Of a DNA stretch of 64,000 bases, positions 47,951 through 57,312 are shown one piece after another (position 1 is the stretch's first letter; each line of letters starts with the position of its first letter). This DNA comes from Escherichia phage PMBT16. A program made the position numbers and the translations under genes. The stretch lies in sequence record PP554575; one strand, written 5' to 3'. The notes under the pieces are model-generated. The model saw only the letters and a list, made by a program, of their open reading frames with translations, did not search any database and had not been told where the DNA came from.

Positions 47951-48240
47951 GGCAGGCCCGGTGATTGTCTCCCGGCCCCTACTGCCCCGGCTTGTTATTA
48001 TAGTAACACACAGGACAAAGAAAGCAAGAAGTTTTTGCATAAATTTTTAGACGATAATGATAATCGTTCTCATTTCATGCAGCGCCCATCCCCGGTGGTT
48101 GTCTCCCCCGTCACCGGTGCCTGCCGTCCTTTCGATAGGTATATTTTGCCACCTGGCGGGGCCGCTGTCAACACTTTTCAAAAAAAAATTTCTAACCTGA
48201 TGCGCTGACCGCTGCAACCTGGCGGGGCCAGCCTGGCAGG
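47951..48240. repeat. GC-rich repeat cluster at the left edge of the small-gene cassette
   Basis: GGCAGGCCCGGTGATTGTCTCC (47951-47972), CCGGTGGTTGTCTCCC (48092-48107) and CCTGGCGGGGCC twice (about 48160, 48220); first motif recurs inverted at 57291-57312. Confidence 0.5.
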
Positions 48241-48284
48241 GCCTATGCTATAGGATAGGTAACAATTGAAGAGGAGGTACAAAA

Positions 48285-48461
48285 ATGGAAGGTAATATGA
48301 TCCCCCTGGAAAATGTAGCTATTAATGACGCTGAGGCTATCGCCCTGGTTGAAAAGGCTATGGCGGGAGCGTTGGAACATAAAGAAGAGTACGAAAAAAT
48401 GATGGTTAACCTGGCAGGGGCGGCGGCTGGAGAATTCTACCCAAAAAATAATTTTAACTAA
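48285..48461 (+). CDS. Small protein (58 aa, unlisted)
   Basis: ATG preceded by strong RBS GAAGAGGAGG. Confidence 0.45.
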   Translation: MEGNMIPLENVAINDAEAIALVEKAMAGALEHKEEYEKMMVNLAGAAAGEFYPKNNFN

Positions 48462-48547
48462 TGGTTGACAGCTCGGACAGTTCTTGTTATTCTTATCCTC
48501 GCAAGGTGAACAACACCACACCAATTAACAGAGAGGATAAAAAAATC

Positions 48548-48745
48548 ATGAACGCCTACGGAATTAAAGTACGTCGCAACACTCGCCAGGTGGTCACCAA
48601 TCAAGTGATTTGCCGGGTGGATGTAACCATCAACAACGGGCAAGGCCTTTATAAATTTCGTCGCGGTCATAGCTATACCCTGCAACAGCTTAACCGTTGC
48701 TCCCTGACAAAAGGTCAGATCAACCACTGGTTTAATAAAAAATAA
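48548..48745 (+). CDS. Small basic protein (65 aa)
   Basis: ATG after AGAGGATAAAAAAATC; the listed longer N-terminus lacks an RBS. Confidence 0.45.
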   Translation: MNAYGIKVRRNTRQVVTNQVICRVDVTINNGQGLYKFRRGHSYTLQQLNRCSLTKGQINHWFNKK

Positions 48746-48748
48746 ATA

Positions 48749-48777
48749 TTGACATGTGGTCTGACACAAAATATACT
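48749..48777 (+). promoter_or_regulatory. sigma70-type promoter
   Basis: TTGACA-17 nt-TATACT directly after the upstream stop. Confidence 0.6.
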
Positions 48778-48809
48778 GAAATCACAAAAGACACTAAGAG
48801 GATAAAATC

Positions 48810-49208
48810 ATGAAAACCACAACCTTTAATTTTGATAATGCCGACTTCTCTTTTTCTGATGTTAAAAGCTGCCGCCGTGATCGCGGATTCTACAAGGCCT
48901 ATAATCTGGTGGGCCTGGACGATGACAATAATTTGCACGAAGTAGCTGAGATCCGGTATTATGCCGCCGCCAGCGGTAACACTCATTACTGTGTATTTTG
49001 GATTCACGACAACAAGAACAATAAGTACGGTTATACTGGCGGCAAGGCGAGCGGTCACGGTTATGATAAAGCCAACGCTGCACTTGAAAGCGCATTAAGT
49101 GCCATGGGAATCACTGCCGACGGCTGGATCTATGAAGAAGAGTTTTTGGCGGCACTTGCTAACCACTTGGGCTATAAAAAGCACATTGTAACATGCGCCC
49201 ACGAATAA
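48810..49208 (+). CDS. Hypothetical protein (132 aa)
   Basis: RBS AAGAGGATAAAATC. Confidence 0.5.
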   Translation: MKTTTFNFDNADFSFSDVKSCRRDRGFYKAYNLVGLDDDNNLHEVAEIRYYAAASGNTHYCVFWIHDNKNNKYGYTGGKASGHGYDKANAALESALSAMGITADGWIYEEEFLAALANHLGYKKHIVTCAHE

Positions 49209-49215
49209 AAAAATT

Positions 49216-49244
49216 ATTGACACGCTGCAAAATTCAAGTAAACT
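49216..49244 (+). promoter_or_regulatory. sigma70-type promoter followed by 5' UTR hairpin
   Basis: TTGACA-16/17 nt-TAAACT; hairpin GGCGGGAATGTTTCCCGCC at 49254-49272. Confidence 0.5.
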
Positions 49245-49292
49245 AGGCACAAAAGGCGGGAATGTTTCCCGCCAACACAAAGGAAAAAGATC

Positions 49293-49688
49293 ATGAATAA
49301 GAACGTACGCCGCATCATGAACGAACTGGCAAACGATGAAAAAATTATTGATATGCATTTGGTCAACATTTGCCGCCGTTGTGTAACATATAACAACCGC
49401 GCCGCAAAAGCGCGTGAGATGAACGCAAAAGGCACCTTAAAGCCTTTTCAGGTGGTTGTAAAATCTATAACTAATGCAGCAGGCCAGGCGCATGACCACA
49501 ACAACGGGAGCACTAATATTGATCCGTCTTACGTAATGAAACGGATCCGGACTTGCAAGAATAAAGAGCAGGTGTATAACGTCATAGATTGGCTGGACTC
49601 CCTGGGCGATGTGGTTTACAACAGGTTTTCTGCAGCTATTGAAATTCAGTTAGACAGGTTGGACGGGAAAGTACTGAAAACTTACTGA
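49293..49688 (+). CDS. Hypothetical protein (131 aa)
   Basis: RBS AAAGGAAAAAGATC. Confidence 0.5.
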   Translation: MNKNVRRIMNELANDEKIIDMHLVNICRRCVTYNNRAAKAREMNAKGTLKPFQVVVKSITNAAGQAHDHNNGSTNIDPSYVMKRIRTCKNKEQVYNVIDWLDSLGDVVYNRFSAAIEIQLDRLDGKVLKTY

Positions 49689-49736
49689 GTTTATTTTTAG
49701 ATGGCCTTGACTCCAGGGCCATCAATAAAGTAAACT
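49689..49736 (+). promoter_or_regulatory. Repeated palindrome/promoter element, copy 1
   Basis: TTTATTTTTA-GATGGCC-TTGACTCCAG-GGCCATC-AATAAAGTAAAC; 7-bp inverted repeat encloses a TTGACT -35-like hexamer. Confidence 0.5.
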
Positions 49737-49768
49737 AATCCCAGTTAAGCGAAAAAGGAGGCTTGAAG

Positions 49769-49888
49769 ATGAGCACTACACGCCAGCACACAAAGGTAAC
49801 TATTATCGTTTGCATCATTGGTTACATCCTGGCGCAAATGTTGATGGGTAGCGCCAATGATTTCGCAAAATTTTTCTTAAACTTTTAA
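49769..49888 (+). CDS. Small hydrophobic peptide (39 aa, unlisted)
   Basis: ATG after AAAAAGGAGG; TM-like segment VTIIVCIIGYILAQMLMG. Confidence 0.4.
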   Translation: MSTTRQHTKVTIIVCIIGYILAQMLMGSANDFAKFFLNF

Positions 49889-49916
49889 TTGACAAGCTAA
49901 CTTAAATCAGTATAAT
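49889..49916 (+). promoter_or_regulatory. sigma70-type promoter
   Basis: TTGACA-16 nt-TATAAT. Confidence 0.6.
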
Positions 49917-49968
49917 ACTAAGCACATAAACGGGAAAACTTCCCAGAACACCAAAAGGAGAAAACATT

Positions 49969-55940: not shown

Positions 55941-56078
55941 ATGAAAACTTTCAACGCAACAGCCTCGACAATTGGTTATATTATTACAGTACAAGCCGTG
56001 GATCTGGTAGCAGCAGCAAACAAGATTAAAAAGATGATTCCGCCAGGCAGTGAATTTTCCGTTTGGGAAGTAAAATAA
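55941..56078 (+). CDS. Small protein (45 aa, unlisted)
   Basis: ATG after TGAGGGTGATTTA. Confidence 0.4.
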   Translation: MKTFNATASTIGYIITVQAVDLVAAANKIKKMIPPGSEFSVWEVK

Positions 56079-56081
56079 ATC

Positions 56082-56109
56082 TTGACAATAGTTTATTACT
56101 TGATAGACT
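56082..56109 (+). promoter_or_regulatory. sigma70-type promoter
   Basis: TTGACA-16 nt-TAGACT. Confidence 0.5.
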
Positions 56110-56161
56110 GTATTTCGTAGGGCGGGGCAATAAGGCAACGCCCATTAATGAGGATAGAATC

Positions 56162-56266
56162 ATGTTAGATAAAATTTTCACGGTTGTAGTAGTTGGCCTG
56201 GCATTATCGGTTGGAGTGGTTGCAACTATGGCTAACATGATCCTATCTTCCCATGGTATCGGTTAA
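56162..56266 (+). CDS. Small membrane peptide (34 aa, unlisted)
   Basis: ATG after AATGAGGATAGAATC; hydrophobic FTVVVVGLALSVGVVATMANMIL. Confidence 0.35.
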   Translation: MLDKIFTVVVVGLALSVGVVATMANMILSSHGIG

Positions 56267-56276
56267 GGTGAATCAA

Positions 56277-56492
56277 ATGATCACGAATAAGACAGGTAAA
56301 ACGGAATTCTTGCGAGGCTTGCAGATCGGCAAGCCAGAGATCTGGTATTGCACTAAAACACCACGTGACGAAATGAAAGACTTCACCGCCACGCTGCAAC
56401 GGGTAAAGATATCCATCACGCAGAAAAAGGCCTTGATAGTGGTGGAAGGTGAGATCCCTCAAACCGTTGTTATAGTTGAGCGTACAGCATAG
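56277..56492 (+). CDS. Hypothetical protein (71 aa)
   Basis: ATG after AAGGTGAATCAA. Confidence 0.45.
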   Translation: MITNKTGKTEFLRGLQIGKPEIWYCTKTPRDEMKDFTATLQRVKISITQKKALIVVEGEIPQTVVIVERTA

Positions 56493-56583
56493 TTTAATTT
56501 ATAGCGATACCTGAAAATTAACCAATAAATCATAAACAGGCGGTTACCGCCGCCTTAAACGTAGCAGAAAGAGGCTAGACACA

Positions 56584-56868
56584 ATGAAAAAGATGATCGC
56601 AGTAGTTGCCCTGGTTGTTGGACTTAATGCGCCTGTAATGGCTAAAGAGCTGGCAAAAGAGGTTAATCTAACGGATATCCATGCCGTCAATCAAATCGGG
56701 GTTACTTATCGCTTATGCCTTGCCGCTAAAACTTTTAATGACGGCACAACAGAGTACTACGGATTCGAGGGTATCCGGTGCGGTGAGCTTGCTCGCGACC
56801 TTAAGGAAGATCCAGACCTGGAAGATCTGCCCATCACCGTAAACGGTAAAGCTTACGTAAACCGTTAA
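56584..56868 (+). CDS. Small secreted protein (94 aa) with signal peptide
   Basis: RBS AGAGG; N-terminus MKKMIAVVALVVGLNAPVMA is signal-peptide-like. Confidence 0.5.
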   Translation: MKKMIAVVALVVGLNAPVMAKELAKEVNLTDIHAVNQIGVTYRLCLAAKTFNDGTTEYYGFEGIRCGELARDLKEDPDLEDLPITVNGKAYVNR

Positions 56869-56870
56869 CC

Positions 56871-57005
56871 ATGAGAAAGATAATCATCACCTTGGGGATT
56901 GTGGCTGGATCGCTGGCGCTCTTTCCCCTTATGGTTAGGTATGTGCTGATCAGTATTGTCCTGGTAGTCAGTGATCTATTGGGAACGGTTGGCACCTTGT
57001 TTTAA
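56871..57005 (+). CDS. Small membrane peptide (44 aa, unlisted)
   Basis: ATG 3 nt after upstream stop; hydrophobic IIITLGIVAGSLALFPLMVRYVLISIVLVV. Confidence 0.35.
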   Translation: MRKIIITLGIVAGSLALFPLMVRYVLISIVLVVSDLLGTVGTLF

Positions 57006-57017
57006 AGAGCGATAAAA

Positions 57018-57209
57018 ATGAATATCGAACAAGTTAGAAAGGTATTGGCGGTACTGCGTTATCATAATCATAGAAAGGTTATAGACGATCCTGATTATGT
57101 TGATTCAAGTCTGGAAGGGGATACACTGCAAGCCATAAGCAACATGCAAGAATTGCTCAAGCGCATGACAGAGAAAAACCGACCGGACTACATAGGCGAA
57201 AAAATATAA
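57018..57209 (+). CDS. Hypothetical protein (63 aa)
   Basis: Compact ORF followed by a terminator. Confidence 0.45.
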   Translation: MNIEQVRKVLAVLRYHNHRKVIDDPDYVDSSLEGDTLQAISNMQELLKRMTEKNRPDYIGEKI

Positions 57210-57225
57210 TCCTTATAAACTACAA

Positions 57226-57254
57226 AACAGGGCTTGCAATGGTCCTGTTTTTTG
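57226..57254 (+). terminator. Rho-independent terminator
   Basis: ACAGGGCTTGCAATGGTCCTGT hairpin followed by TTTTTTG. Confidence 0.65.
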
Positions 57255-57290
57255 TTATACTTGTTTCACGGCAGGCACCTGGCGACGGGT

Positions 57291-57312
57291 GGAGACAATC
57301 ACCGGGCCTGCC
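57291..57312. repeat. GC-rich motif, inverted copy of 47951-47972 (right bracket of cassette)
   Basis: GGAGACAATCACCGGGCCTGCC is the exact reverse complement of GGCAGGCCCGGTGATTGTCTCC at 47951. Confidence 0.6.

Follow-up and report, generated by a model that had tools for sequence, protein, structure and literature searches.

The closest described class of element is the promoter-early stem-loop (PeSL) cassette of T4-like phages (Arbiol et al. 2010, PMC2839356; Comeau et al. 2014, PMC4122927), a composite intergenic motif that occurs among small early ORFans and in which a sigma-70-like promoter and a GC-rich (polyG/polyC) stem-loop stand together beside a terminator; its copies recombine. 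Small early ORFans, recombining copies and promoter-like signals at every copy, with a significant stem-loop at only one of them, also mark the three GC-rich repeats, here called A, B and C, of a 64,000-nucleotide stretch of Escherichia phage PMBT16 (record PP554575; the window), an rV5-like coliphage (Vequintavirus). PeSLs, however, occur in many copies, as direct repeats around individual ORFans, and their stem-loop precedes the promoter and acts as a terminator, whereas the window has three copies, one of them inverted, in which a conserved core follows the predicted promoter and most homology breakpoints do not fall at the copies. The reading favoured here, which we hold as an even call, is that the inverted repeats are three paralogous modules, each a promoter with a conserved leader, that would act in regulation and not as recombination sites.

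The repeat core and its conservation

The 22-mer GGCAGGCCCGGTGATTGTCTCC is exact at 47951-47972 (plus strand) and, as its reverse complement, at 57291-57312 (minus strand), its only two exact occurrences in the window; in 100 dinucleotide-preserving shuffles no match with three or fewer mismatches arose. The inverted pair reported in a preliminary description of this DNA is therefore real, as is the related direct copy reported there at 48092: the shorter motif CCGGTGrTTGTCTCC has a third copy, CCGGTGGTTGTCTCC, exact at 48092-48106 (plus). The conserved part is a core of about 28 nt, CrGGCA-N5-GGTGwTTGTCTCC as DNA or GGAGACAAWCACCGG-N3-5-UGCCyG as RNA, to which A-type copies add a GAATArC prefix and adjoining palindromes. 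The core of A (AACGGGCAGGCCCGGTGATTGTCTCCCG, 47947-47974, plus; nhmmer E=1.8e-5) holds the 22-mer at 47951-47972; that of B (GCGCCCATCCCCGGTGGTTGTCTCCCCC) spans 48082-48108 (plus; E=0.047); and that of C, which is inverted relative to A and B and contains the exact 22-mer, spans 57290-57315 (minus; E=1.1e-4). A and C have their 5' half in common, and the 3' half of B, CCCGTCACCGGTGCCTGCCGT, matches the 3' half of C (CCCGTCrCCrGGTGCCTGCCGT).

A and B share a non-coding region of 0.7 kb that heads the early block, and C lies between an intrinsic terminator (57224-57251) and a strong promoter (57338-57366), 19 nt after the former, which is a genuine terminator-like site. A, B and C themselves are absent from the list of the terminator scan, which asks for a GC-rich hairpin followed directly by a T-run. 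The three repeats form GC-rich islands in these two non-coding regions, but the genome around them is not AT-rich, contrary to what had been stated: 1-kb windows have 38-48% GC.

The 11.5 kb around the repeats are 88-95% identical to about 260 phage records, mostly Vequintavirus, and 65 records of the phage collection cover at least 80% of this query in one place on the same strand; a search with element C gives at most three matching places per record. Eleven Vequintavirus relatives were read in detail, and phAPEC8 (Phapecoctavirus), CR8 (Certrevirus), BIS47 (Mydovirus) and SSE121 form a wider set. A (plus), B (plus) and C (minus) have the same order and orientation in all 11, with A and C 8.5-9.8 kb apart, and neither these nor the 65 records show the block inverted, missing or relocated. 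Aligned for insertion, inversion or absence of the block, the 11 are collinear with the window; homology breaks at 48236/48390, 49736/50308, 51435, 54470/54815, 55604-55908/56211, 56143, 56879/57005 and 57199/57221, that is, at gene-sized replacements or indels scattered through the block and mostly not at the copies.

Orthologous A cores are found in all four phages of the wider set, and a search with the core profile gives a copy inverted relative to A and downstream of it in three of them: at L145 4369-4395 in phAPEC8, about 9.1 kb from A across the record junction, at L144 9196-9223 in CR8, 10.65 kb from A, and at L147 9753-9779 in BIS47, 7.3 kb from A (L numbers denote the loci examined; the copies of CR8 and BIS47 are called C'). 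In each case the copy directly follows a terminator in a gap between genes; in SSE121 this search gave no convincing inverted copy. Few of the genes between the paired copies are shared with the window (tblastx), and the pair, kept in four genera around largely different contents, is therefore older and better conserved than what it encloses. Across two subfamilies, the core also shows stronger conservation than the non-coding DNA around it and most of the genes between the copies. A scan of IMG/VR with the 15-mer returned 120 stretches, nearly all of them chance matches in unrelated contigs; only L020, L066 and, weakly, L052 are relatives. By its sequence, the element conserved in Vequintavirus, Phapecoctavirus, Certrevirus and Mydovirus looks like a shared regulatory signal. 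Of the block boundaries first proposed, a weaker sense is supported: both block ends carry landmarks that are conserved in the four genera and presumably functional, but an insertion, inversion or excision of the block as a whole is not supported.

The copies also exchange sequence. A two-base variant, GGCAGGCCCGG / GGCACCCCCGG (GG/CC), occurs both at A and at C, in the A/C combinations AGG/AGG (five phages), ACC/ACC (three) and mixed (two); C of MiataMamis has all four B-specific states and is identical to B over 34 nt, and C of FV3 has an A-like 5' extension. By their sequence patterns, these cases show gene conversion among the paralogous copies, inverted ones included.

A literature search for the motif returned no description of the element; Rfam gave no match at gathering score in the window, nothing relevant at E≤5 in 47300-48400 and nothing at E≤1 in four related loci; and ARAGORN found no transfer or transfer-messenger RNA. 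Compared by eye with consensus sequences, the core was rejected as a sigma-54 promoter, a sigma-70 pause (by its -10-like GACAAT), an IHF site, a Pho box and a mimic of a CRISPR repeat, on account of spacing or of key positions that are not conserved.

Predicted promoters and folding

On the G-rich strand, a predicted sigma-70-like promoter precedes every copy, with 26-29 nt (36 nt at B) between the end of its -10 element and the core. P_A(-) at 48000-48027 (minus), directed leftward into A, consists of TTGCTT (48027-48022), a 16-nt spacer and TGt-TACTAT (48005-48000), ends 27 nt before the core, and scores 7/12 plus an extended -10 in our own scan; the general promoter scan does not list it. 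P_B(-) at 48143-48171 (minus), leftward into B, reads TTGACA, a 17-nt spacer and CAAAAT (promoter scan, 10/12, TG present); it ends 36 nt before the core, and its spacer holds the copy of CCTGGCGGGGCC at 48152. P_C(+) at 57234-57261 (plus), rightward into C, reads TTGCAA, a 16-nt spacer and TGt-TATACT (promoter scan) and ends 29 nt before the core. Scanned promoters of the relatives are TTGCAA-17-TATATT at A and TTGACT-18-TATCCT at C' of CR8, TTGATC-16-TATTAT at A of SSE121, TTGCTT-16-TATTCT at A and TTGCAA-16-TATACT at C of phAPEC8, and TTGCAA-17-TATATT at A of BIS47; that at C' of BIS47 (TTGTTT-17-TATTCT, 7/12) was read by eye. Six of the nine scanned copies score at least 9/12. In an alignment of nine copies, the invariant positions include the GGTG of the core as well as TA and CAA, which lie about 40 and 60 nt to its 3' side and correspond to the -10 and -35 of the opposite strand.

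The C-type copies have a layout of their own, in which the -35 lies in the loop of the preceding terminator and the extended -10 right after its T-run, followed by the core. In the window, P_C(+) is in this way embedded in the intrinsic terminator and its T-run (57224-57261, plus; promoter and terminator scans); the same arrangement is found at L127 404-435, at L144 ~9134-9170 in CR8 and, less clearly, at L147 ~9820-9850 in BIS47, and is kept in Vequintavirus, Phapecoctavirus and Certrevirus. The order terminator, promoter, core rests on scans or annotation in the window and phAPEC8, on a scanned promoter and a terminator read by eye in CR8, and on reading by eye in BIS47.

From these signals we infer that the promoters fire, which strand acts and what part the core plays. 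Each module would consist of a sigma-70-type promoter on the G-rich strand and the ~28-nt core at about +20 to +50. Module B and then module A would fire leftward, out of the block, through the palindromes, the AT-rich stretch and the iteron-like repeats that lie beside them; module C would fire rightward after the terminator and restart transcription towards the last early genes and the genome end. The core could act within the RNA leader, as a 5' hairpin or as a signal for processing or antitermination, or equally as an operator in the DNA at +20 to +50. With one core common to the three promoters, a single factor or a single mechanism at the RNA level could control them all; gene conversion would keep the copies alike. 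Binding sites for a common factor, one of the roles proposed at the outset, remain a live option as a predicted role, because what is conserved is primary sequence at a fixed distance from the promoter. On this reading the core would be a cis-element linked to three predicted promoters, with a conservation that exceeds that of the genes between its copies.

Folding does not give the copies a common structure. Within the window only C folds clearly better than its shuffles (z=-3.2 for the C-rich strand and -2.0 for the G-rich strand), its core forming a stable predicted hairpin with a 3' arm at 57270-57289; the C copies of Vequintavirus range from z=-2.7 to -5.2, and apart from C, only A of CR8 has a significant stem-loop. 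An alignment of C with B contains no pair with a compensatory change (RNAalifold). As there is no shared structure and only C folds, the hairpin is not the common denominator, and a conserved hairpin was dropped as the defining feature. Among phages, the C-run in the loop of element C varies from C2 or C6 to about C11, the last in slur16 (L137 ~10640-10700), which suggests a slippage-prone sequence.

Several points weigh against the promoter-leader modules. Every promoter is a prediction, and P_A(-) is weak by consensus (7/12); the chance of finding such promoters at the copies, about 1e-8 to 1e-11 in a binomial calculation for 10 independent copies with seven at 9/12 or above (one more than found), is less extreme, if still very small, with six, and in either case its significance is overstated because orthologues cannot be counted as independent. 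In Vequintavirus, there is no gene that leftward transcription from A and B would express. A and B fold no better than shuffled sequence (z > -2), nor does C of phAPEC8, and RNAalifold on A across the genera gives no conserved structure, with only 4 pairs. Where there is folding, it points to the other strand: the G.U wobble pairs of the C hairpin favour the C-rich strand, opposite to the predicted transcripts, and the block that takes the place of B in other genera also folds in the sense opposite to the promoters.

A sense/antisense arrangement in which both strands are transcribed would reconcile the objections concerning the strand, the weak P_A(-) and the missing gene. The three modules would then be sense/antisense control units of a kind so far undescribed in virulent phages, in which a hairpin RNA made from the C-rich strand would counter an outward G-rich transcript and the head region would be gated by host Fur or by a phage protein that binds the phased palindromes; this extension is rather unlikely. 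In it, the G-rich transcript could be a replication primer or activator RNA, or an antisense or insulating transcript, and head and tail of the terminal ~11.6 kb would be marked by a shared switch responsive to iron or to the stage of infection.

The head region, the early block and the genome end

From left to right, the region of A and B contains tandem repeats (47617-47802), an AT-rich stretch, palindromes (at 47891, 47920 and 48053) together with A and B, and copies of CCTGGCGGGGCC. The tandem repeats are three iteron-like units of 65-74 bp with CTCGATC cores, found by repeat search and followed by the AT-rich stretch at 47800-47900; equivalent repeats occur in CR8 (L004 ~1190-1400), SSE121 (L005 ~1245-1440) and BIS47 (L006 ~1235-1440). 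Their content of GATC is modest in the window, 2 per 211 nt, versus 5-6 per ~220 nt in CR8 and BIS47. With its iteron-like repeats, phased palindromes resembling Fur boxes and a candidate small RNA, this would be an unannotated control region of ~0.7-1.2 kb.

The palindromes are 19 bp long (AATGAgAATCATTcTCATT). One, AATGATAATCATTCTCGTT, lies at 47920-47938, 9 nt left of the A core, and a weaker one at 47891-47909, at a distance of 29 bp; such 29-bp-phased arrays stand beside A in four of five genera (seen in phAPEC8, CR8 and BIS47), and SSE121 has a single copy. A third site, GATAATGATAATCGTTCTC at 48053-48071, matches the Fur-box consensus GATAATGATAATCATTATC at 17 of 19 positions and is the only site in 64 kb within three mismatches of it (0.01 expected); it lies 21 nt upstream of B and overlaps the -10 GATAAT of TTGCAT-18-GATAAT, a promoter-like match on the plus strand that was read directly from the sequence. 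This overlap and match suggest a Fur-controlled rightward leader. Further palindromes lie beside C' of CR8 and cluster in the terminal non-coding region and terminal repeat of the window (59386-59538) and in the terminal region of CR8, so that the family occupies 47891-47938, 48053-48074, 59386-59422 and 59504-59538 in the window and L003 1454-1559, L004 1408-1522, L144 9261-9281 and L144 10846-11440 in relatives. TGAkAAT-N-ATTmTCA has nine matches in the window versus 1.3 expected, six of them in the A/B and terminal regions.

The resemblance to a Fur box thus consists of the near-consensus third site and of the 7-1-7 layout of the family, and GGGAATCATTCTC is part of the experimentally supported Fur box of A. 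ferrooxidans mntH (PMC1874648); the resemblance, however, lies in the neighbouring palindromes and not in the GC-rich repeat. The half-sites are consistently TTCTCA, versus TTATCA for Fur, and since they are also phased at 29 bp and clustered at the genome terminus, the palindromes may bind a phage protein instead. If they do bind Fur, a virulent phage would read the iron status of its host. Literature searches that extended to Fur boxes in rV5 and to transcription start sites in Vequintavirus likewise gave no description of the element; the sole match for 'fur box' was lambda sitABCD.

At the position of B, Certrevirus, Seunavirus, Mydovirus and Phapecoctavirus have a highly conserved GC-rich block of ~95 nt (L004 1650-1735, L005 1652-1737, L006 1685-1769, L003 1697-1777, and L020 from 7953). 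It folds best in the plus sense, as an 11-bp hairpin with three G.U pairs and a U/C-rich tail; a divergent relative has one compensatory change from CG to AU and two changes from UG to CG, and a predicted promoter of the opposite strand begins at its 3' end. On this modelled fold, it is a candidate small RNA, one not in Rfam. Between the block and the first plus-strand early gene, SSE121 (L005 ~1800-1985), BIS47 (L006 1826-2011) and phAPEC8 (L003 ~1880-2085) have a small gene on the minus strand that encodes about 61 aa and is annotated in BIS47 alone. The window lacks a counterpart of this gene, which would be transcribed leftward, towards the modules.

Motifs of the CCTGGCGGGGCC type, reported at about 48160, 48220 and 55313, were placed correctly to within a few bases: exact copies start at 48152, 48218 and 55315. 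A one-mismatch copy lies at 48232, and at up to two mismatches there are 11 matches versus 2.0 expected. The copy at 48218 is part of CCTGGCGGGGCC-AG-CCTGGCAGGGCC (48218-48243, plus; repeat search); the homology of two relatives, MiataMamis and UViG_3300010279, breaks inside it at 48236, and several records of the phage collection end at ~48245. The copy at 55315-55337 (plus) pairs with a downstream GGCCCC to form a hairpin just after the stop of the open reading frame (ORF) at 55029-55313, with no T-run; it is unrelated to the A/B/C family, and its context is unlike that of its counterparts at 48152 and 48218, located within or close to promoter spacers.

From ~21 kb to 58 kb, every gene is on the plus strand. 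Between the repeats there is a run of small ORFs to which no function is assigned, with many consensus sigma-70 promoters and terminator-like sites; these do not form a distinct cassette, as first described, for small plus-strand early genes with sigma-70 promoters extend upstream of A. Nineteen ORFs between 48285 and 58018 were scanned, ten against Pfam and ten against PHROGs, one of them against both. In these collections none of the 19 matches a recombinase, the 18 in the block (the 19th lies just right of C) match no DNA-binding family either, and all PHROG matches are of 'unknown function'. Several ORFs of the corresponding rV5 region have homologues in RB49, according to the rV5 annotation. 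A search with a 207-aa protein of the block gave only two close loci, and the annotated phage collection was used instead; among 5,426 genomes of E. coli, none gave a significant BLAST match to the A/B region. Between 17 and 23 records that carry the name 'Campylobacter phage', with C. jejuni as host, match the rV5-like region, those listed at 85-97% identity; they are probably coliphages carried along in the isolations, or mislabelled.

About 25 nt right of C, the strong early promoter TTGACA-17-TAACAT (57338-57366, plus; promoter scan), which is P168 in rV5 and is annotated as sigma-70 in rV5 and Gotham, would drive the next gene, at 57421. The annotated 459-bp terminal repeat of Gotham maps to 59089-59547 with 94.6% identity, which predicts that the physical genome ends ~10 nt after the last palindrome (59520-59538). 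This predicted end is ~11.6 kb from element A, and the A/C pair brackets most of this final ~11.6 kb, 8.5% of the genome; a transposon study of the rV5-like phage Bas54 mentions there only an essential terminal intergenic region of ~2 kb. The early block (47000-55000) differs in strand composition from the genes upstream: GC skew drops from ~0.12-0.20 at 44-47 kb to ~0.01-0.10 at 47-55 kb and AT skew climbs, with the coding strand unchanged.

Alternative explanations and known systems

The preliminary description took the repeats for recombination sites or boundaries of an acquired module, such that crossing-over would invert the 9.3-kb block or the repeats would end a mobile module acquired horizontally. 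Inverted repeats of 22-34 nt do flank the block, homology does break off close to each of the non-coding regions (two relatives at 48236, three at 57199-57225), and the copies do meet and recombine, as their exchange of sequence shows. Yet no crossover product has become fixed as an inversion in any genome compared; no relative, among the 65 records and the 11 read in detail, has the block inverted, excised or elsewhere; the scanned ORFs of the block include no recognisable recombinase or invertase; most breakpoints are indels of single genes inside the block; and a pair that four genera keep around different genes is older than its contents. This explanation is accordingly very improbable, and programmed inversion or excision of the block very unlikely; since inverted repeats recombine, rare inversion of the 9-kb early block is nevertheless a testable prediction. 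It is equally improbable that the repeat has no function of its own and survives as a neutral relic from an old inverted duplication of intergenic DNA: homology of the whole unit reaches beyond the core, as a duplication would leave it, but the core is conserved above its non-coding surroundings and most intervening genes in two subfamilies. Conservation of primary sequence in place of structure, occurrence in either orientation and a pair kept at a spacing of 7-11 kb would also suit a double-stranded-DNA site at which a phage or host protein bridges the block ends as a loop or boundary, the nearby promoters being incidental; this leaves the fixed distance of 26-29 nt to the -10 unexplained, we know of no candidate protein that binds the core, and the proposal is quite unlikely.

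Two further explanations start from the transcripts. In one, the C-rich strand is the functional one: A and B would be rightward 5' leaders or small RNAs from promoters overlapped by Fur boxes, making the early block iron-responsive, and C in the plus sense, a perfect 22-nt complement of A, would let the ends of the block transcript pair to create an RNase III site or to mask the C leader. The near-consensus site GATAATGATAATCGTTCTC over the -10 upstream of B, the wobble pairs and z-scores of C and of the B-equivalent block, and the exact complementarity of A and C in RNA of the same sense all fit; but A has no usable -35 and C no convincing minus-strand promoter, in CR8 and BIS47 its terminator has the orientation that suits plus-sense transcripts, complementarity of A to C falls to about half of the core positions in phAPEC8 (by eye), targets resembling ribosome-binding sites and complementary to the loop are at chance level in the window (23 found versus 20 expected), and the palindromes, with TTCTCA half-sites clustered at the genome terminus, may bind a phage protein. 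We consider it unlikely. In the other, the head region is a transcription-activated or transcription-primed replication origin, C being a second such site: the tandem promoters would fire G-rich RNA into the AT-rich stretch and the iterons, on the model of the primary origin of T7 and of ColE1 RNA II, and C-rich hairpin RNAs would act as antisense regulators like RNA I. A non-coding stretch of 0.7-1.2 kb that is kept in five genera and contains three iteron-like repeats, arrays of palindromes, AT-rich DNA and a tandem pair of predicted leftward promoters speaks for it. G-rich RNA on a C-rich template favours R-loops, as at the origins of ColE1 and mitochondria, and the predicted RNA would be prone to them; the B-equivalent of other genera, a structured plus-sense RNA that ends where the opposite promoter starts, has the geometry of RNA I and RNA II. 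Against it, no origin-binding protein was identified, C has no iterons, the enrichment of GATC in the window is modest (2 in 211 nt), and the change of GC skew at 47 kb is not the change of sign expected of an origin. A transcription-activated origin at the head region is plausible by analogy; as an account of the repeats as a whole it is a possibility on the unlikely side.

The rV5-like and phAPEC8-like phages are broad-host-range candidates for therapy, and their early regions are almost entirely unannotated; the element offers a handle on how early transcription, and possibly replication, may be organised in Vequintavirinae and Stephanstirmvirinae.

Compared with known systems, the repeats resemble those of invertible segments (Mu Gin, P1 Cin, Salmonella Hin) in that short inverted repeats flank a segment of several kb, and differ from them in having no adjacent serine recombinase (ORF scan), no enhancer and only one orientation in all relatives. 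Like lambda nutL/nutR and HK022 putL/putR, the promoter-leader modules would, by their predicted layout, be an inverted pair of cis elements after oppositely directed early promoters, with terminator-rich DNA downstream; unlike these, they show no conserved structure of the boxA/boxB or two-stem put type, there are no genes for the leftward modules to read into, and to our knowledge these phages have no N-like protein. The terminal ~11.6-kb early region is comparable in size to the first-step-transfer segment of T5. ColE1 RNA I and RNA II have no sequence similarity to the elements and belong to a plasmid instead of a virulent phage, and A and B of the window, unlike them, are not significantly structured; the arrangement is nevertheless alike, with transcription signals (here predicted) face to face around a structured segment of ~60-100 nt and, in the other genera, a hairpin RNA ending at the start of an opposite promoter that reads into the AT-rich repeat region.

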